64,000 bases of DNA, from assembly GCA_047459655.1 (NCBI GenBank), contig JAJREF010000005.1, forward strand, positions 128,001 through 192,000, read 5' to 3'. Below the pieces are notes generated by a model. The model was not told where the DNA came from. It saw only the letters and a list, made by a program, of their open reading frames with translations, and did not search any database. Source of the stretch: Rhabdochlamydiaceae bacterium. GTDB lineage: Bacteria > Chlamydiota > Chlamydiia > Chlamydiales > Rhabdochlamydiaceae. The position numbers and the translations under genes were made by a program. Positions 36,852 through 55,826 of this stretch are shown in pieces (position 1 is the stretch's first letter; each line of letters begins with the position of its first letter).

Positions 36852-38513
36852 CTATTCACTTTCTAAAAGATCTAAGAAGGCGTGTAGCTGTTTCGAGCGT
36901 GTGGGGTGGCGCATTTTACGGAGCGCTTTTGCTTCTATCTGTCTCACTCTTTCTCTTGTCACTTTAAAGCGAACGCCGACTTCTTCAAGGGTTTTTGGTT
37001 TCCCGTCAAGGAGTCCAAATCTTTCAATGAGGACGGTTCTTTCTCTTTCAGTGAGAGTGGACAAGACTTCTCCCATCTTATCTTTTAAGATGGCATAGCC
37101 TGTTGCTTCAGCAGGAGATTCTATAGTTGTATCTTCTAGAAAATCTCCAAATTGGCTTTCTCTCCATCTCCGACTTCAGCTTGCAAAGAAATTGGGTGCT
37201 GCGCAATTTTATAGATCTCACGCACTCTTTCGGGTGTTAAATCTAGCTCAATTGCTAATTCTTCAGGAGTAGGCTCTCTGCCGGTTTCCATCATGAGCTT
37301 TTTAGCGCCTCTGAGGACCTTGTTGATTGTTTCAATCATATGAACAGGGATGCGGATGGTGCGAGCCTGGTCAGCAATAGCTCTTGTGACAGCTTGTCTA
37401 ATCCACCATGTTGCATAGGTGGAAAATTTATAGCCTCGGCGGTACTCAAATTTTTCTACTGCTTTCATAAGGCCCATATTTCCTTCTTGGATTAAATCAA
37501 GGAAAGAAAGGCCTCTATTTGTATATTTTTTTGCAATCGAGATAACAAGACGTAGGTTGGACTCTACCATTTCTCTTTTTGCTTCTTGGCTCTTGTCCAT
37601 CCAGCGTTGTAGCATGCGGACGTCTTTTTTAAACTCGTCGAGCGTTCTTCCTGCGGCTAGCTCGCGTTTGCTCAATTTGCGTTGGACGGCGAGAAGTTTA
37701 GCAGCTGCAAATTTGTTTTTTTCTGCTCTTGGAATCAACTCTTGCATCTCTTTTTCTAAGCTTAAAAATCTGTCATAGGCAGTGAGAATCACTTCGCCGA
37801 AGTCTTCGATGATGTTATGGCGAAGATGCATTTGACGTAGGTAAGCTTGTGTGCGGATTCTGCTCTTTTCGAGATTTTCTAGGATTTTAGACTTGTCGAG
37901 TTTTTTTAGATTTGGATCTCGGAGCTCGACTAAATAATTTTGTAAGACAGCGTCTTCCTCTTTGAGGAGGTTGCATAATTTTAAAAGGATGGTCAGGTAA
38001 TGGGCCTTATCGGTCACTTCTTTTTCAGAGATAACCTTATCGAACCTTTCTTTATTCGTGATGAGGTAGTTGGCAATTGAAATGGCTTCTTGTCGAGTAG
38101 CGGAAACGGAGAATGATTTTTTCAACTTGGATCTGAGCTTTTTCAATTCTCTCGGAGATCTCCACTTCTTCTTCTCGAGTTAGAAGTGGAACAGATCCCA
38201 TTTCTTTCAAATACATCCGCACAGGATCGTCTGATGTGCCTTCTGTTCTTTTTCCAAGGCTTTCGATTTCCTTTGCTTCTTTCTTACGCTCCTTTTGGCG
38301 TTCTACATCTGCTTGGTTTTGAACTTGAATGTCCATTCCGCTCAAGAAAATCAAAACCTGATCGATTTGCTCGGGTGAGTCAAACGTCATTGGTAAGATT
38401 TCGTTGATTTCTTCGTATGTGATGTAGCCTTGTTCTTTGGCTAGGGATACCAGCTCTTCAACTTTTTGTTGATGCTGTTGATTAAAAATGTTTGAAAAAT
38501 TACCTTTACTCAT
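36852..38513 (-). CDS. rpoD: Primary sigma factor sigma66/RpoD (frameshifted)
   Basis: '[12 protein letters not shown]', '[12 protein letters not shown]', 'YATWWIRQA', '[15 protein letters not shown]'. Confidence 0.97.
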
Positions 38514-43212: not shown

Positions 43213-44589
43213 TTAATGATTTCCCCATGTCGGGTAGTGTTTCACACCAGGGCCTTGGGAAATCTTTATAGCTTCTGGTTGATTTAAATTCACAATATAT
43301 AAATCTGAAGATACAGCATCTGTGGCATCAAACACAATATGATTACTATCAGATGCCCAAGAAGGATTTTCTTTGATCCCCGGCCCTTCTGTCAGCTGCT
43401 TTTCTTCTTTTGTTTCGAAATCATAAATCCAAATTTGGCGTACACCATTTGTTTTAGCGCTATAGGCTAATTTTTTTCCATCAGGAGACCAAGCTGGGCA
43501 AGAATTTTCCTGATTTTCTTTGGAAATCAAAATGGGAGTGGCTCGCTTGCCTTGGAATCTAGCTGGGATAATGTAGATCCGAGGAGATCCATCTTTGTCA
43601 GATACAAAGGCAACTCTTAGACCCGTCAGGACTAAATGTGGGAGAAGCTTGGGTAGCTTTTGGAAAAGAGAATAACTGGACGGGTTTTCCCACTTCTCCT
43701 GTTTCAGGATGAAACTCTTGAAGGAACAGGTCGATATTTCCTCCTGCATCTGAAATAAATGCAATTTTATCTCTTTTTGGGGAAATAGCTGGGAGCATTT
43801 GATGTCCTTTCAGATCGATCAATCGTTTTCCTGCTCCATCTTTCAAAGAAGCAAGGAAAATCTTGGGTTGTCCAGATTTGTAAGATACATATAGAAAGCG
43901 GTCGTTGGCAAATTTTGTATGAGGAGGAATAAAGACAGGTGTTACGCAATAACTGCCCTCTTTTGTGATCTGTTTTGGGTTAGCGCCATCCCAATCACAC
44001 GACCAAATTTCAGAGACCCAATCTCTTTTATGGGAGGGCTTTTGTTTAACAGAGTAAAGGATGCGTGTGCTTGCAATCCCATCTGTTCCAAACAGCGCTT
44101 TGTGGACAGCATCTGCTGCAACGTGGATTTGGTGGCGATCTTTTCCGATAATACCTGTTAAGGGAATGTCTGTAAATTGTTTAAGAGATCCTGTTTCTGA
44201 GGAGAAAACAGTGAGGGATAGCATCTTGTTCTCAATTTTAGCTTGTACAACGTGGGCTGCTCCAAAATTTCTCCATACCATGGGATTAAAAGCTGCGCTT
44301 AAATTTTTGTGTGCAAGCACTGCTTCTTTTTCTGCAGAGAGGGCATGATTTTTGTAGACCCATTATAATTAAAATCATAGGCGAGGATGTCTTCCAGAAG
44401 ACTTACATATTTAGCATCAACCCCTTCACCAGACTTTACTACTTTACCAAAATAGAGAGGCTCTAGAGAATTTGTAGTGGGAAGGTAGACGCGGATTTCC
44501 TGGGCATCTTTAGGTGGTTCATCCGATGCGCAGACAGATAACGTAGATATAAGGCTTAGGGAAAATATTATTTTATGTAAAAATCGCAT
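43213..44589 (-). CDS. tolB: Tol-Pal beta-propeller protein (frameshifted)
   Basis: PD40 repeats 'PAISP', 'PTFSPDG', 'PAWSPDGKKLAY', 'PSW'; operon context. Confidence 0.93.
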
Positions 44590-44598
44590 AATTTTAAC

Positions 44599-45315
44599 TC
44601 AGTTTTTAGGTTCATTACAAAACGTTACTACAAAAACTTTCTCCTTAACTTGCAAACTTTGCAGATCGGGAAAATGTAAAAGCGGCAACTGTTTTTCTAG
44701 ATATATCCTATTTTTAACACTTTCCGCTTTTAAAACAACTATCTTTGCTAAAGTTCCATCCTCTTGTATAGAAAGCTGTATTTTTACCTCTCCTTGCTCA
44801 GGGAGATGCAAAGCCTCATGCAGGTAAGAGAGGAGTGCATCTTGATATCTCTCTTCAGGGGTGGCAATAAAAATAGCTGCCGTATCTTGTAAACTACTGC
44901 GTGTTTCTTGTAAAGGAGCAGGCGGACTTATTTTCTCCTGATCCTTTTCAATCTTAGCGACGAGTTCTTCTAGCTCTTGCACGATTTGCTTTTGGAGGTC
45001 AGCTGGTGGGGTTTCTTTTTTTGGAGGGGTAGCTGGTTGTTTAGGAGTTGGCTTACGGGTTACAGGGGCGGCTTTAGGCTCTATTTTTTTTGCGGGAGAT
45101 TTTTTCTTAACAGCTGGTTTTTTTGTAGGAGGGTTGGAAGGTGTTTGCGTTATTTTCTTTGGCTGAGCAATAGAGCGAGATGGTTGTTTAAAGGTATGTG
45201 TTTGGACAATGAATTTTTGTGGAGGGACTTTAGATGCTTTCACGGGGGAGAATAAGAGGAAAAAAATCCCCGCCAAATGGATCCAGATCACAGTGAGCGA
45301 GATTTTCTTTAACAT
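44599..45315 (-). CDS. TolA/TonB-like protein
   Basis: N-terminal TM with His, Pro/Lys-rich linker, TonB_C-like 'GEVKIQLSIQEDG'; between tolR and tolB. Confidence 0.8.
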   Translation of the reverse strand: MLKKISLTVIWIHLAGIFFLLFSPVKASKVPPQKFIVQTHTFKQPSRSIAQPKKITQTPSNPPTKKPAVKKKSPAKKIEPKAAPVTRKPTPKQPATPPKKETPPADLQKQIVQELEELVAKIEKDQEKISPPAPLQETRSSLQDTAAIFIATPEERYQDALLSYLHEALHLPEQGEVKIQLSIQEDGTLAKIVVLKAESVKNRIYLEKQLPLLHFPDLQSLQVKEKVFVVTFCNEPKN

Positions 45316-45322
45316 GAGATGA

Positions 45323-45744
45323 TCAACTTGGTTTTAAAATCACATCCATTTGCTCAAAGCCTGACATTTCAACAGCGTTCTTAACTGTTTGATAAGTCCC
45401 AAACACTGCGTTTTTGTCGTGGAATACCTGGGGCGTGCGTCCTGGGGTTTTTTTATGGATTTCTTTGAGCAGAGAAATCAATTCTGAGGCGTTCACTTTT
45501 TTCCGTTTAGCCAAATCGTATTGTTCGCGTGCACGTGGATCACAATTTCCCCTTTTTCTGGACTCAAAGTTACCGTTTTTTCTGGACCTGAAGGAGCGCT
45601 TGCAAGCGTCACTCTATCTAGTTCTAACATTGGCGCAATGATGATAAAAATGATGAGCACGACCATCACAATATCGATCAAAGGAGTAAGATTGATACCC
45701 GCATCTTCTATTTCTATATCTCTTTGAGAAGCTCTTTTACGCAT
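45323..45744 (-). CDS. TolR/ExbD family protein (frameshifted)
   Basis: 'INLTPLIDIVMVVLIIFII.AP'. Confidence 0.92.
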
Positions 45745-46505: not shown

Positions 46506-46661
46506 ATCATCCTCTTGTGTGATTTGTTCTAGAATAGCGAAATATTAGGGCTTGCGCAAGAGAATTGCTTCAAAAACTTTTCTAAAAATAACTTGCAACA
46601 AAAATTGTATACACGCTAGATTCTCTCAATCATTCGGTAAGATTTTTTTGCGGAGGCAATC

Positions 46662-48659
46662 ATGTTTCAGCTTCCTAAGTTCTTCACTAACTTTATTCTC
46701 TTATTTACCCTCTTCACCGTTATTGTTTATCCTCAAGGGCATGTTCCCCTTCAACACTCTGAAATAACTCTAAGAATATTACCTGAGTTCTCTGAGATGA
46801 CTTACGATGATGTCATGAATCTGCTAGATGACTTCGAAACCGGTGCTATCGAATACAAATATAGCCGAGAAGATATCGAGAAGGCTATAGATCTAGTCAT
46901 CATGCTTGCAAGGACAGGTCTTTTACCCGACGAAGATCCTGAAGAGTTAGAAAGAGATATCCAAGAGCTCTTATACGGGGAAGGTGATTTTTCTGAGTGT
47001 TCTTTTAAGGAGGGTTGTTCCACTTTTCCTGCTCTTTTTTATGGGAAAGGAGATACTGTTTTATGTAAAAATTGGTTTGTTAAATCCTGCCAAAAGACAG
47101 GAAAATTCATTAAAAAGAAAAGAAAGGCCATCATCATTGGAGCAGCTGTTGCTGTAGCCGTTATAACCGTAGTTGGAATTGCAGCTGCTGCAACAGCAGG
47201 AGCTGCGGCAGTGGGAGCTGCCGCAGATAACTCCACCTCATCAAAATCAAGCACTTCAACTTCTTCTCCAACTGCTTCTAATCCAACCTCTACTCTATAT
47301 ACTCAGATAGAAGTCCCAACCATATCTTTCAAAGAAAACATAGCTAGCGAGCATTTTTTTCAACCCTCTTTTTACAAAGAAACTTCTCAAGAAAAGGGAA
47401 GAGTTTTAGGGTCCCTTTTTGCCCATGACACTCTTAATCAATTTAGTGATCGATTTGCTGTGCACCCCAACTTTGCTACCAATGAACATGATAAAATCGA
47501 CCATAAATTTACAACAGACTATACGCAGTTGTATTCAAACTCTAAGAAAGAGCCTGATTTCAATACCCTTGCCTATCAGCTTCAAGGAGAAAGAGAGCTA
47601 TCTTCTGGTCACCTAAACCAAGCCATCTATGACTTCAGCCAAGCCATTGAACGCAATCCCACAAGCCCCCTTCCCTATCTTGAAAGAGGCGTTGCACATT
47701 TTGGGCTGGGGCAATACGACCGCTCCTTAGAAGATTATCATCAGTTTGCAGCTCAAGTAGAAAAAACAGAACCACTATCAATCCCCTCCTTCAGCTTAGG
47801 CTTTGCAAAAGGTCTTCCAAGCGGCATCTGTGAATCGGGAAAAGGTTTGGCCTTGTTTGTCTCTGATGTCGCTCTACACCCCGTTCGCACAGGAGGTCAA
47901 GTTTGGGAGTCGCTTAAACTTTTAGCAGACCTTACAAAATCTCAGGAGTGGAGCACTTTAAGCGAGGTGTTAGCCCCAGAAGTTCATCAACTTGTCAAAG
48001 AATGGGATACGCTTGACTCTGAAGTAAGAGGGCAACTCGCAGGACATGCCTTTGGCAAATACGGAGCTGACATCCTCATACCAGGAGCCCTAGCAAAAGC
48101 TGTTGCCAAAGGAGCAAAGGGAGCCCAAGAGCTAAGCGCTGTCTACAAAACACTCCAAAATGCTGAAAAAGCGCTCCTTCTTGAGTCTGCAGCTGAGTTA
48201 GGCAGTAGCGCCAAGATCGGAGAAGCGTTAACTACCACGTATAATACGGCTCTTCTTGGAGAGGAGTTAGGGTTTAGTGTTAAAGAAATGAACCAGCTTA
48301 AGCAAGCGGGAAAGCTGGAAGGAGCTATCAATAGTAGCTTAGAGAAATTAGTCTCTCAATCGGAAAGTGAGGTTTACAAGGCTACAATCAATCAAAATAA
48401 ACATGTAAAGATGGTAAGAGACTATCTTGATAAGCCAGCTAAAGAGATTCAAAAGGGTATTAATAGCTACGAAAAACAAATTGCTATTCACAAAGATAAA
48501 ATTGTGAATCCAGCAAAATATTGCCCAGATTGGGATAAATTAGATCCAAGGCAGCGTGAAGCTTTACTTAATAAAAAATGGCCAGCAGAAATTCAGGTAT
48601 AAGAAGAACAAAGGGGCGTTCTTCAATCTATTCTAAATGAAAGGCTTTCTCATGAATAA
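46662..48659 (+). CDS. Exported TPR protein with putative C-terminal toxin domain (in-frame TAA at 48600-48602)
   Basis: Signal-like N-terminus, Ala/Gly hydrophobic stretch, Ser/Thr linker, TPR pair, C-terminal charged domain; frame stays open after the TAA to 48659. Confidence 0.7.
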
Positions 48660-49186
48660 AGGGAAATTTAAAGGGTATATTGTTGATACAATAATTTTGT
48701 TAAAAGAGTTAGCTAGAAAAGCAAAAGTAGAGGCCGATAATCCAAAAAAAGGTCTTAAGAATTATGCACAAGGTGTAATAATGGGGTATTATTCAATTAT
48801 TACTCTGTTAAAGCATGAAGCATTTGCCTTTTGTATTGATCAGAAAAGAGTTAGGGTTGGCAGATATAAAACCTGATGTAGATTTGCTCAGCCTTGGTCG
48901 AAATCTTGATGTAGATAATGAGGAAGATAATTGGGCGGTCGATGTTATGCACGAGGAAAAAATCAAAGGCTATCTTATTGATTCAATAACCTTGCTGAAA
49001 GAGCAGGCGATAGAAGCAAAAAAAGAAGCAGATAATCCGAAAGAGGGTTTTGAGGATTACAACAAGGGGGAATTAATGGTTTATTGTTCGTTATTCTCTC
49101 TTTTAAAGAAACAAGCTTCTGTGTTTAACATCGATGAAAAAGAGCTCGGATTAGTTGATATAAAGCCTGAACAAGATCTAATCTAA
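48652..49186 (+). CDS. Putative immunity protein with two tandem homologous domains (frameshift ~48845)
   Basis: ATG overlaps the extended upstream stop (ATGAATAA), GAAAGG RBS; internal repeat 'KGY..D.I.LLKE.A..AK.EADNPK.G...Y..G..M.Y.S...LLK..A..F.ID.KELGL.DIKP..DL'. Confidence 0.7.
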
Positions 49187-49214
49187 TGCACATTTTAGAT
49201 GGAAAAGTTGACTG

Positions 49215-50013: not shown

Positions 50014-50988
50014 ATGATAAAGGCAACTCTCCCTAGTGTATTTGTATGGAAAAGACTTCAGTCTCTGATGGGGCTTTGGCTTGTTCTTTTTCTCATGGAG
50101 CATCTATTTGTTAACTCTCAGGCGGCGCTTCTTTTGGGAGAAAGTGGAAGGGGGTTTGTTGAGTCGGTAAATGCAATTCACAATTTACCTTACCTGCCTG
50201 TCATCGAATGCGTTCTCTTAGGGGTCCCGATCTTGATTCATATGGTGTGGGGCGTAAGGCTGTTATTTACAGCTAAGTCGAATTCGGTTTCGAGTGATGG
50301 TAGCAAACCACAACTTTCCGAATACAAAAGAAATAAAGCATATTCATGGCAAAGAATTACTTCGTGGATTCTTTTATTTGGACTCATGGGACATATCTTC
50401 ATGTTCAGATTTTTGAATTACCCTTGGTCTGCTTCTGAGGGATCTACTTCTTCGTATTTTGTAAAAATTAAAATGGATAAAGGGCTCTACACTTTGGCAG
50501 ATCGGCTGGGGTTTACTCTCTACGACAAGAACAGCATCTTAATAGAAAAGCAAGAGCTTGCAAATAGGCAAGAGGAAGCGGCAAAAGCTACTCCAGAGAC
50601 GCATGTATTTGATCCTGCTGAGCAAGTTGTTTCGGTGGCTGCACAGAAATATCGACAAAAAATAGCATGGGTTCAAGCTCTTGATAAGAAGCCTTTACAA
50701 GAGGGAGAAGTTATTGCTGTAGCGAGTAATTTTGGAACCGCCTCTCTTTTGACTGTGAGGGATACATTCAAAGTTCCTCTGTATGCATGCTTATACACTA
50801 TTTTTGTTCTTGCAGCTTGCTTTCATGGATTTAACGGATTGTGGACTTTTTTGATAACATGGGGCTTTGTTATTAAAGTAGCATCACAAAAAAGAGCGGC
50901 TTTTGTAGCTGTAGGATTGATGTTAATGGTTACTTTCCTTGGGCTTGCCTCTATTTGGGGTACTTACTGGTTAAATCTAAGATCATGA
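50014..50988 (+). CDS. sdhC: Succinate dehydrogenase cytochrome b558 subunit
   Basis: 'RLQSLMG..FLMEHL', 'WQRITSW', 'CFHGFNGLWTF'; upstream of sdhA. Confidence 0.92.
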   Translation: MIKATLPSVFVWKRLQSLMGLWLVLFLMEHLFVNSQAALLLGESGRGFVESVNAIHNLPYLPVIECVLLGVPILIHMVWGVRLLFTAKSNSVSSDGSKPQLSEYKRNKAYSWQRITSWILLFGLMGHIFMFRFLNYPWSASEGSTSSYFVKIKMDKGLYTLADRLGFTLYDKNSILIEKQELANRQEEAAKATPETHVFDPAEQVVSVAAQKYRQKIAWVQALDKKPLQEGEVIAVASNFGTASLLTVRDTFKVPLYACLYTIFVLAACFHGFNGLWTFLITWGFVIKVASQKRAAFVAVGLMLMVTFLGLASIWGTYWLNLRS

Positions 50989-52875
50989 AAAAAACAACTA
51001 AAGAAGTGATTGTAGTGGGTGGTGGTCTTGCGGGTCTTTCTGCAGCTATGAAGCTAGCAGAAGCTGGGTGCAGAGTCAAGATTGTCTCTGTTACAAAAGT
51101 GAAGCGCTCCCATTCTGTTTGCGCGCAAGGTGGGATCAATGCAGCAATTAACTTAAAGGGGGAGGATGATTCTCCCTACATCCATGCTTATGACACTATC
51201 AAAGGGGGAGACTTTCTAGCGGATCAGCCTCCTATCCTGGAGATGTGTTTGGCAGCTCCGGGGATTATTCGTTTAATGGACAGGTTGGGTTGCCCCTTCA
51301 ATAGAACACTCGAAGGGAATCTAGATTTTCGACGCTTTGGAGGAACGCTCTACAATAGGACAGCGTTTTGTGGGACATCTACGGGGCAGCAGCTATTGTA
51401 TGCTTTAGATGAGCAGGTCCGTCGATTTGAAAGCAAAGGAGTGGTTGAAAAATTTGAAAGCCATGAATTTTTGCGTCTTGTCATCGATGAAGAAGGGCGG
51501 GCAAGAGGGATCGTGATCATGGATCTGATCAATTTAAAATTAGATGTTTTGAAAGCGGATGCTGTCATTTTTGGGACGGGTGGTCCGGGGCTTATTTTTA
51601 AAAAATCTACAAACTCCACTTTTTGTACGGGTGCTGCCAATGGTCGTCTCTTTGTTCAGGGGATGTGGTATGCGAATGGGGAGTTCTATTCAAATCCACC
51701 CAACAGCGATACCGGGGGAGGATAAGCTCCGCTTGATTTCAGAGTCGGCAAGGGCAGAGGGAGGAAGGGTTTGGGTTTATGGAGATTCTTCTAAATCTAT
51801 CGAAACAGCCAATAAAAAGACCATTCCTTGTGGAAAGACGGGAGAGCCGTGGTATTTCTTAGAAGAGCTCTACCCTGCTTTTGGAAATCTAGCCCCTCGC
51901 GATATCGCCGCAAGAGAGATGTTAAAGGTTTGCGAGCTGGGGCTCGGCATAGATGGTAAGATGCAGGTTTATTTAGATTTAACACATCTTTCTAAAGCCA
52001 CATTCCACAAAATGGAGTCGATTTTAGATATCTATAAGAAATTTACGGGTGAGGATCCTAGAAAAGTACCGATGAAGGTATTTCCTGCTGTGCATTATTC
52101 TATGGGAGGTGCTTGGGTAGATTGGCCGGCTGCAGATGATCCAGATCGAGCAACAAGATTTAGGCAAATGACCAATATTCCTGGCTGTTTTAACATTGGA
52201 GAATCTGATTTCCAGTACCATGGAGCTAATCGTTTAGGAGCTAATTCTCTTTTATCCTGTATCTTTTCTGGCCTTGTAGCGGGTGTGGAAGTGCCGAAGT
52301 ATTTGGAAAGCTTAGAGGTCAGCTATGATGCCCTACCTACATCGATTTATCTAGAAGCTCTTACTCAAGAAGAAACCTTGAAAAAGGACCTCCTGGGTCG
52401 TAATGGTCCAGAAAATGTTCATCAGTTACATGATGAGCTTGCAGACATCATGGTGCGTAACATGACGGTGAAAAGAAATAATGCTGACTTGAAAAAAACT
52501 ATTTCTCAAATAAAAGAATTAAGGGAGCGTTATGGCAATATTTCTTTAAGTGACCGTGGGGCTTTAATGAATCAAACATATGCGTTTGCCAATCAATTCG
52601 GCTTCATGTTAGAACTGGCTTTAGCGATGACAGTGAGTGCGCTCATGCGCGATGAATCAAGAGGTGCACATTTTAAAGCAGATTTTCCAGAGAGAAATGA
52701 TGAAAGTTGGCTTAAGACAACCATTGCGTCCTATGAAAGAGAGGGTCCAAAGATTTTTTATCGCCCTGTTGATACAAGGCACTACCCAAATCTTGAAAAA
52801 AGGGATTATGCGCATGCAAAGAAAAAAAAACCTACATTAGAAAAGATACCACCTAACATACAACTCCCCTTATGA
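50985..52875 (+). CDS. sdhA: Succinate dehydrogenase flavoprotein subunit (frameshift ~51685)
   Basis: 'VVGGGLAG', 'RSHSVCAQGG', 'QIHPT', 'HYSMGG', 'HGANRLGANSL', 'ESRGAH'. Confidence 0.97.
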
Positions 52876-53642: not shown

Positions 53643-53678
53643 ACTCACCTTGACGCAGAAAAGAGGTGAATTTTTTTT
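53641..53678 (+). terminator. Probable terminator after sdhB; left arm resembles the family D terminus
   Basis: AACTCACCT...AGGTGAATT followed by T run. Confidence 0.55.
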
Positions 53679-53715
53679 GGAATCTGATTTAATAGCCCTC
53701 TTTGGAGGAAAATCA

Positions 53716-54433
53716 ATGAGTCAGAAGAAACGAATACTATTAATCGAAGATGAAGAAGACATCGCTGCTCTTATAAAACTGCAAGCTGAAATGAGCGGAT
53801 ACAAACTTCATGTGGAAGTGGATGGGATCAATGGCTTTCAAGCTGTAAAAAGAGAGCGGCCTGATCTTGTGATTCTTGATATCATGTTACCTGGGCAGAA
53901 TGGATTTGATGTATGCCGTAAGATGAAAAGCGATCCTGATCTCAAAACTATTCCTATTATTATCGTGTCTGCTAAGGGAGAGGAATTAGATGTGATCTTA
54001 GGTTTAGAATTAGGCGCTGATGACTACGTTCCTAAACCTTTTTCTCCCAAAATTCTCTTTTCTCGTATTAGAGCTATTTTGCGTAGAGGGAAAGAGCCAG
54101 AAAAGCTCCTAAAGTGATCGGATTTGGAGAGTTCACTCTCGAAGTTGATCGTTATCTATTGCGTAAAGAAGATAAAATTGTAACAATTACCTTATCTGAG
54201 TTTGGCATATTGAAGAGGCTGCTCACTAACCGAGGTAAAGTGCTCACCCGCAATCAATTATTAGATGATGTGCATAATGATGATGCATTCATTGTAGATC
54301 GTAATATTGATGTCCACATCGCTTCTCTGAGAAAAAATTGGGCCCAAAATTTGATTGGATTGAAACAGTGCGAGGTGTAGGGTATCGTTTTAAAGAAGAG
54401 GCTATGCCTGCCCTTGCTAAAGATAGAGATTAG
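53716..54433 (+). CDS. OmpR/PhoB family response regulator (frameshifted)
   Basis: 'IEDE', 'LDIMLP', 'GADDYVPKPF', 'DRNIDVHIASLRK', 'ETVRGVGYRF'. Confidence 0.93.
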
Positions 54434-54894: not shown

Positions 54895-55826
54895 TTAGAC
54901 TTTAGCAGATAAAAGAGGGAGAATGTCTTCCTGTGGCAGCGCAGTTGCAAGCGCAACCTGGTCTACTGAAAAGCCTTTTTCAAGCATAGCTTTGGCGGTT
55001 TCGATAAGCGCTGCTTGACGCCCTTCTTCGCATCCTTTCTTATGCCCCTCCTGAAGGCCTTCCTCATGTCCTTTCCTACGCCCTTCTCGGTGGCCTTCTT
55101 CACGTGCCTCTGTTTTAGCAGCGTCTATCATGCCTTGCGCATCTGCGGTATTCATAATGAGCTTTTCATACCATTGAAGCTCCCCTTCTGTCCAATGGTA
55201 GCGATCTAAGATTTCATAGGCTGCTTTAATTTCAGGATGGTTGGAAAGGACCGCTTCGATGTCCTTGCTCTCATCGGCGTGTTTGAGGAAATAGTACCAT
55301 CTGTCTTCAATGGTTTTGAGTTCTTCAAGGGTTTTTGTGAATTTTGGTAGTTCTACAAAGGTAAAATAAAAGTCCTTGAGATCGTTTTCATGGGAAAGGT
55401 TGTCTAGAATGACATGGTCAGATTTATACCCTTCTTTTTTCAGGAAAGACAACATAGTCAGTAATGGCTAAAAAAACAACTTTTTTCAAATCGGGGTATT
55501 TTTGCCTGCGCCAAAGTGAGCGCAATACGTTTTCGCAGCATAGTACTGCGCTCTTTTTTCAAAACCCTCGACTTTGGCAACTTGCATCTCGATGATATAT
55601 TTAACACCTGATTGATCTTCTACAAGAACATCCACAATGCTTTCCTTTCTGGCTTCAATTTCAGGAGCTTGTTTGGTGTTAAGAAACTCAAGAGAAATGA
55701 TTTTGTGCTTTCCTGTTAAATGAAATACAGCATTGAGAAAATCTATCGGAATACGTTTGTGCTTTTCAGCTCCAAACACTTTTTAAATGCTAAATCGTTT
55801 CTGGGATCTAAATATCTTGTAGACAT
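54895..55826 (-). CDS. Rpn family PD-(D/E)XK recombination-promoting nuclease/putative transposase (frameshifted)
   Basis: 'YLDPRNDLAFK..FG', 'SIVDVLV', 'IIEMQ', 'KRAQYY', 'FVELPKF', 'EG..EG..KG' C-terminal repeats. Confidence 0.92.

Follow-up and report, generated by a model that had tools for sequence, protein, structure and literature searches.

The window analyzed here, a 64,000-nucleotide stretch of a Rhabdochlamydiaceae genome, contains a gene that starts at 46662 and is flanked by tolQ (minus strand) and tatD, and it raises the question of whether obligate intracellular chlamydiae code for polymorphic toxins with cognate immunity proteins. The original prediction read this gene, together with the small gene that follows it, as such a system, with a constant trunk carrying a C-terminal toxic tip.

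Organization of the toxin-type gene and its partner

The proposed order of parts is confirmed: a hydrophobic N-terminus is followed by an acidic block, an Ala/Gly stretch, a Ser/Thr linker, a TPR pair, a GFAKG..HP..FGKYG region, and a charged tip, here termed tip A (Table 1). The predicted length of ~665 codons holds for the open frame, which continues beyond 48602 to a TAA at 48657-48659, whereas the open reading frame (ORF) as it stands ends after 646 codons; the ATG at 48652 overlaps the extended stop, as reported. The premature stop cuts the protein inside the last conserved helix of tip A, and the full-length same-tip relatives P0006, P0007, P0022, and P0063 extend 19 residues past its end. 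Because a short-read contig spans 48572-48833 without a difference (the stop lies 28 bases from the contig end, and the run may be that of the source sample) and two database contigs, one of them longer than any in this assembly (G000), encode an identical protein of 646 aa, the stop is more likely real than an assembly error. A terminator-like hairpin at 48603-48624, directly 3' of the stop, is probably incidental (1 site vs 2.4 expected by chance).

Table 1. Features of the toxin-type locus in the window
Feature	Coordinates	Strand	Basis or remark
Upstream stretch duplicated with the gene, likely promoter and ribosome-binding site	46584..46661	+	76/78 identical to sister copy
Toxin-type gene as it stands	46662..48602	+	646 codons; premature in-frame stop 48600-48602
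Signal-like hydrophobic N-terminus, aa 1-30	46662..46751	+	Hydropathy and YPQ-like motif; export predicted
Acidic helical domain, aa 44-115	46791..47006	+	pI 4.05, conserved motif, pLDDT
Conserved Cys, basic-aromatic helix, and Ala/Gly hydrophobic helix, aa 135-188	47064..47225	+	Motif, hydropathy, model
TPR pair, aa 300-370	47559..47771	+	Pfam TPR_11 and TPR_1 above cut-off
Helical pre-toxin region, aa 371-549	47772..48310	+	Conservation, short-read fork, Atlas leads
Tip A, unnamed all-helical toxin-type domain	48357..48659	+	Portion past 48602 lies beyond premature stop
Cognate partner (predicted immunity) gene	48652..49186	+	Tandem duplicate of ~80-aa unit, frameshifted near 48841-48848

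The N-terminus is hydrophobic over aa 4-30, and a YPQ-like motif is present in 71 of 105 long homologues and a strong hydrophobic 11-mer within the first 45 residues in 47, whereas a lipobox Cys is not conserved (22 of the 105). The signal-like N-terminus of the original prediction thus holds as a hydrophobic segment, and a signal peptide is only suggested. The acidic domain has the conserved motif YD..E..LA.eG.LP..L..D and is modeled at pLDDT 87-97 over aa 41-100. The Ala/Gly hydrophobic stretch (aa 153-188; Kyte-Doolittle peak 2.78) belongs to a motif of Cys, basic-aromatic helix, and Ala/Gly helix that recurs in 80 of the 105 long homologues and is modeled as helices 136-152 and 154-187, making aa 135-188 a candidate membrane-crossing element. 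Only TPR families score above cut-off in Pfam and NCBIfam scans of the trunk (PF13414 at aa 309-350, and PF00515), and the TPR pair is the only part of the trunk with solved sequence relatives. The model of the full-length protein consists of helices throughout (mean pLDDT 85, pTM 0.80), and a fold search with it gave only weak TPR matches (E≥0.059); for the pre-toxin region, Atlas points to clusters of MafB and EndoU toxins (0.87). A consensus promoter scan found no promoter site within the upstream stretch, and the repeat, promoter, and terminator scans of the window locus gave nothing above chance.

In the window, the partner region is split by its frameshift into ORFs of 74-79 and 123 aa, the intact partner in relatives being 177-182 aa long. 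It is a tandem duplication with halves that are 50% identical, and the short acidic gene of the original prediction fits the second half (pI 4.7) and the intact relative (pI 5.2) but not the first half, which is basic. The frameshift could be an assembly error, since many housekeeping genes in the assembly are also frameshifted; its site is covered by none of the short-read contigs placed on the locus. Those split by frameshifts are at window positions 37136-38513, 43213-45744, 50955-52875, 53650-54380, and 54895-55779 and at L001:2477-5028 (by eye, rpoD-, tolB-, tolR-, sdhA-, response regulator-, Rpn/PD-(D/E)XK-, and topA-like genes), pointing to an error-prone assembly. With both toxin and partner genes broken in such an assembly, the state of the window copy is uncertain; it is probably damaged, and the stop codon and partner frameshift suggest that it may be broken near its end, decaying, and possibly nonfunctional.

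A sister copy with a different tip

The same genome (G000; 1.61 Mb, 82% complete) contains a second copy at C5:40617, which is identical to the window copy at 1586 of 1619 aligned bases over 46662-48310 (98%) and then at only 154 of 336. The last base common to both is 48310, the tip exchange point. Upstream of the gene, 76 of 78 aligned bases are identical, and further upstream the two are unrelated (68/157). The sister copy is intact and codes for a 682-aa protein with an unrelated tip (tip B), overlapping an unrelated 120-aa gene. In run X1, short-read contigs diverge at 48310, with one branch leading into each tip, and in run X2, from another study, the tip A junction (48278-48474) is unchanged. 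A long-read chimera as the origin of the two copies is ruled out by the presence of both junctions in short-read contigs.

The two copies differ in gene neighborhood, with the sister copy located downstream of topA and flanked by an ATPase-like gene and a gene for a long coiled coil (L001:5218-6528 and L001:9068-10111). The tolQ-tatD slot was compared in the loci of 19 relatives (L141 to L159), where it holds other genes (including in both same-genus genomes), nothing, or a dsbD-like gene (by eye), and never the toxin cassette of the window within the 1.5 kb examined. The slot, upstream of tatD (window 46506-49214), has varied cargo in most relatives, is empty in three, and contains the dsbD-like gene in four more distant genomes; it is an insertion hotspot. 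The window copy would have arisen by duplication of the trunk and its upstream DNA into this variable slot, with a different tip.

Distribution of the trunk in Chlamydiota

A search with the window protein gave 145 hits. Among the 120 listed, those with a named source are nearly all chlamydial, including Candidatus Rhabdochlamydia sp. T3358 and Simkaniaceae, and these have no annotation beyond TPR or hypothetical protein. Of 400 Chlamydiota genomes, 146 contain a match to the pre-toxin region (E≤1e-5), often with several copies each, although about half of these matches are weak and ~77 by hand count are below E 1e-20; one chlamydial family of 29 genomes has no match. Conservation is high to aa ~525 and collapses after aa 550.

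Some pre-toxin matches sit behind different N-terminal halves. In L119, L121, L126, and L127, the trunks are divergent, with the TPR and pre-toxin region behind other N-terminal parts, and one divergent trunk has a long TPR array (1062 aa); L119, L121, L123, L125, L126, and L127 carry Ntox50, DUF6883, or Ntox35-like tips. No longer, fused forms of the pre-toxin region were found, which is weak evidence. Locus L069 (G340:C38) has an open frame of at least 1245 aa in which an unrelated N-terminal part precedes the pre-toxin region and a stacked double tip, consisting of a partial tip A and then a tip B variant with its own 179-aa partner.

Tips and partners change together

Tips and partners were compared in loci L001 to L131, drawn from the 400-genome match list, some of them for their weak or clustered matches, and supplemented with 20 loci from metagenomes. 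These yielded 142 trunk ORFs, of which 130 are closed with a tip of at least 50 aa and 126 are distinct. The 126 ORFs form 15 tip clusters, or 13 tip types when two frameshift artifacts are subtracted, and P0113 shows a 14th. Among the 120 listed homologues, tip B is the most common (47), followed by tips C (37), A (24), and D (7), with five unassigned.

A gene of at least 60 aa starts within -45 to +60 nt of the ORF end in 117 of the 126; the nine ORFs without one include five at a contig or locus edge, three that are broken, and one (L106) that is unexplained. In clusters with at least two members, 105 of 110 ORFs have the modal partner of their own tip, compared with a mean of 54 and a maximum of 61 in 2000 shuffles, related genomes not being independent samples in these counts. 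On a quick IQ-TREE tree of 110 trunks, with short, duplicate, and artifact rows left out, there are 46 tip changes vs a minimum of 7. Tip A requires 17 changes for 19 rows, no fewer than with shuffled labels (17.7); tips A, B, and D are scattered like shuffled labels, C and Ntox50 are clustered, and trunk copies from the same genome often pair yet bear different tips. The tips thus do not follow the trunk phylogeny.

More than one tip or partner type is present in 35 of the 131 loci, some of which overlap one another. Stacked tip-partner cassettes occur in L053, L084, L113, and L126, and partner-only tails for tips not encoded at the locus occur in L007, L013, L016, L017, L118, and L129; the window locus has no extra cassette. 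The original prediction anticipated that the same trunk would be found with different C-termini, each followed by a different small gene, and this is seen both in the sister copy and across the tip types; the C-termini of the homologues vary, and the downstream gene co-occurs with the tip.

Tip A is widespread outside the chlamydiae

A search of 1.84 billion representatives yielded 593 tip A hits; in nearly all of the 147 that were examined, the domain stands at the C-terminus. Scans of 40 longer hits identified eight Rhs proteins, three PT-TG proteins, two chlamydial TPR proteins, one each with DUF637, PT-HINT, eCIS-core, DUF4280, and TSP3, and 22 without a Pfam family; the chlamydial pre-toxin region is absent from 41 of 54 long tip A proteins. 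Eight non-chlamydial loci, from Planctomycetota, Myxococcota, Bacillota, and Pseudomonadota, have tip A, and in seven a partner homologue is directly downstream (E 1e-7 to 5e-26). Tip A was expected on Rhs, CdiA, LXG, or MuF trunks beside partner homologues, and this is borne out for Rhs and DUF637 (CdiA-type) proteins and for the partner, but not for LXG or MuF, neither of which is among the 40. At the eighth locus, L133 (Syntrophomonadaceae bacterium):966-1616, a single frame runs without a stop from tip A into a partner-like sequence (by eye).

Tip A is entirely helical when modeled in an intact relative (pLDDT 88), with two short helices and a long hairpin, and its conserved positions are GGKH, S, H, KIxNP, LDPRQ, KKWPxDI, and EQ. 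Neither Pfam and NCBIfam nor PDB contains a sequence relative of tip A, and there is no Foldseek match at E≤0.001; its VIA fold matches are generic helical hairpins (best Z 8.4), several of them ribosomal uL29-like, and are not taken as evidence. Like Ntox28, the helical tRNase CdiA-CT of Escherichia coli 536 described in excerpts of PMC9086364, tip A is small and helical with a conserved His, and Ntox28 is a weak Atlas lead (0.76). However, identity with Ntox28 was rejected, as hhalign against ten Ntox28 members gave a probability of 0.5% and no PF15605 Pfam hit is among the families shown (83 members). The CdiA-CT536 fold is not listed by Foldseek or VIA, whose matches are generic hairpins, nor is it among the 50 fold matches shown. 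Tip A is an uncharacterized toxin-type domain. Because it is basic (pI 8.1-9.5), its intact partner is acidic (pI 5.2), and the identified sister tips are nucleases, it probably targets nucleic acid, with a roughly even chance of its being an RNase that uses two conserved histidines, this catalytic role being a guess since there is no sequence relative and the fold matches are generic.

Known toxins among the other tips

Tip B has a single weak match, 8owu_B (E 0.003), which we take to be the PT7 nuclease complex, and its partner resembles SCO4402 below cut-off; no solved relative was found for tip C. Tip F matches 6d7y_A (E 1.8e-24), the CdiA-CT of PABL017, which is a tRNase according to excerpts of PMC9086364. 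Ntox50 is present on the trunk above cut-off and matches the YxiD C-terminal domain (9v8i) and MafB2 (8hhj); YxiD is described in the available part of PMC12700104 as a tRNase with a cognate immunity protein. Also present on the trunk are DUF6883 followed by a DUF4926 partner, DUF4258 (at about the cut-off), and a weak Ntox35, and one partner has a colicin-like immunity domain. Some of these known toxin tips ride on divergent trunks that share only the TPR and pre-toxin region.

Relationship to known polymorphic toxins

Among the closest known systems is MafB/MafI of Neisseria, a mid-sized single chain with a conserved N-terminal part, a variable C-terminal toxin, and a downstream immunity gene; MafB has a signal peptide, and maf islands contain downstream cassettes. 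An Ntox50 tip is shared with MafB2, and the pre-toxin region has an Atlas lead to a MafB cluster. However, PF06255 (DUF1020) is absent from the window protein (E≤1) and from 20 homologues (E≤0.1), and the chlamydial trunk is built differently, combining a TPR pair with an acidic domain and a long hydrophobic helix. No mafA-like gene was noticed, and the carriers are obligate intracellular bacteria. With CdiA/CdiI and Rhs systems, the family shares a pool of tips (tip A on Rhs and DUF637 proteins, and tip F similar to CdiA-CT PABL017) and downstream tip-immunity cassettes, but the trunk is ~700 aa rather than thousands, has no hemagglutinin or YD repeats, VENN, DUF637, or HINT, and has no CdiB, VgrG, or PAAR gene noticed beside it. 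The LXG/WXG (type VII) and PT-TG toxins, such as Bacillus YxiD-YxxD, resemble it in having an all-helical trunk, a pre-toxin region, and tRNase tips (excerpts of PMC12700104), and tip A occurs on PT-TG proteins, but no such domain is hit in the chlamydial trunk, and the producer is Gram-negative.

Toxin families are defined by their N-terminal region, according to excerpts of PMC5576092. Pfam and NCBIfam scans of the trunk found no YD repeats and no hemagglutinin/TPS, LXG, or MuF domain, and because the defining N-terminal domains are absent, the family is not a member of MafB, Rhs, CdiA, LXG, or MuF. In its available part, the founding survey (PMC3482391) names chlamydiae among the carriers of Ntox50, Ntox35, and other tips, notes as rare cases the URI toxins of Simkania that have immunity genes, and does not mention the chlamydial trunk; polymorphic toxin domains in Protochlamydia are mentioned without detail in excerpts of PMC6520448, and the excerpts of PMC9997750 describe no chlamydial toxin family. 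A literature search, with subscription journals mostly outside its coverage, found no description of the family. The Nachmias preprint (10.1101/2021.10.19.465003; PMC13675652) in its available part screened the C-termini of known toxin trunks, so tip A may be among its candidates. Judged by sequence, this is a polymorphic toxin-immunity family that had no name before; its trunk is new, and its tip A is uncharacterized and widely shared.

A probable role in interbacterial conflict

The reading of the locus as a polymorphic toxin-immunity system is supported by tip exchange at 48310, the 13 tip types, the pairing of tips with partners, and sister tips that are known toxins. Four of the six features considered here under the definition of polymorphic toxin systems by Zhang et al. 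(2012) are found, namely, a constant N-terminal region with diverse C-termini; tips shared with other toxin families; a cognate gene that changes with the tip; and standalone cassettes, poly-immunity tails, and tip exchange by recombination. The other two are an export determinant, to which the hydrophobic N-terminus and the secretin loci of the genome may relate, and toxicity that the partner would neutralize. We consider it likely that the family serves environmental chlamydiae in interbacterial conflict, as a poison for rivals encoded with a protective partner.

The choice of target depends mainly on the partner-only tails, because of which bacterial rivals are preferred. These tails correspond to tips not encoded at the locus and would be useful only against incoming toxins of kin, which makes it unlikely that the proteins are host-directed effectors, with nuclease tips delivered into an amoeba, an invertebrate, or the organelles of such a eukaryotic host and partners that only guard the producer before export. 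Chlamydiae do live in eukaryotic cells, excerpts of Zhang et al. (PMC3482391) treat TPR or ankyrin proteins with C-terminal enzymes from Waddlia and others as host-directed, and some polymorphic tips also kill fungi (excerpts of 10.1101/2021.10.19.465003), but the examples in PMC3482391 are without immunity genes, whereas a coupled partner is present in 117 of 126 cases here.

Two readings without a bacterial rival fare less well. One is an internal module for suicide or dormancy, in which a TPR sensor anchored in the membrane would free a nuclease tip, otherwise restrained by an antitoxin, in its own cell upon phage infection or stress. The combination of membrane helix, TPR, and variable nuclease effector is also known in abortive-infection systems, no export gene was noticed beside the loci, and the window copy sits in a variable insertion slot. 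Such a module is nonetheless very unlikely, as the tips stem from the Rhs/CdiA/PT-TG pool of competition toxins, the stacked cassettes and foreign partner tails fit conflict between cells, and the signal-like N-terminus would put the tip outside the cytoplasm. That the gene codes for a variable surface protein with no toxic role and only incidental downstream genes is scarcely credible: tip A is without a known enzymatic fold, as this would have it, but its sister tips are known toxin families, and the pairing with partners (105/110) is maintained in other phyla.

The constant helical trunk bears exchangeable tips, each with its own small gene, and tip and partner move together. Tips are swapped where the pre-toxin region ends (48310 in the window copy), and spare cassettes, either tip with partner or partner alone, collect downstream. 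If the family acts in interbacterial conflict, the N-terminus would direct the protein through Sec, and outer-membrane vesicles or a type II system would release it; the genome has four secretin loci above cut-off, which do not tell the route, and no gene dedicated to export, chaperoning, or proteolysis was noticed next to the loci. The Cys/basic and Ala/Gly helices could take the protein across the target membrane, while the TPR and pre-toxin helices would hold the tip and deliver it, presumably as a nuclease, with the partner binding and neutralizing the tip and so protecting the producer. Transfer from one vacuole-bound chlamydia to another bacterium has no explanation in this scheme.

Excerpts of PMC3482391 conclude that intracellular bacteria are mostly without immunity genes and so rarely fight kin; a family carried by between a fifth and a third of the chlamydial genomes sampled, with strict pairing of toxin and partner and with poly-immunity tails, would overturn this conclusion for the phylum. 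How symbionts of amoebae keep out co-infecting bacteria is an open question in the available part of PMC6520448, for which the family is a candidate answer, and it supplies a new trunk and several uncharacterized toxin-immunity pairs (A, C, and others). More tentatively, and with the balance slightly against it, there may be a phylum-wide chlamydial arms race in shared hosts, in which a previously undescribed helical delivery chassis of ~700 residues, made up of hydrophobic helix, TPR, and pre-toxin region and with no need of a dedicated secretion locus, is reloaded with Rhs/CDI warheads and serves kin discrimination or superinfection exclusion, tip A being a new helical toxin with a new immunity family.

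A second chlamydial polymorphic family

A second, unrelated chlamydial polymorphic family is located just outside the window on the minus strand (G000:C5:119797-122054) and in loci L160 to L169. It has a module of ~120 aa ending in WPxLxAAG that precedes a variable toxin-like domain, and this genome has two adjacent copies of it in tandem, accompanied by a T12-like tip and a partner of 171 aa. Ntox28 is found in 15 of the 400 genomes and follows the WPxLxAAG module in nine of the ten loci read, often near the N-terminus of ORFs of ~2250 aa.
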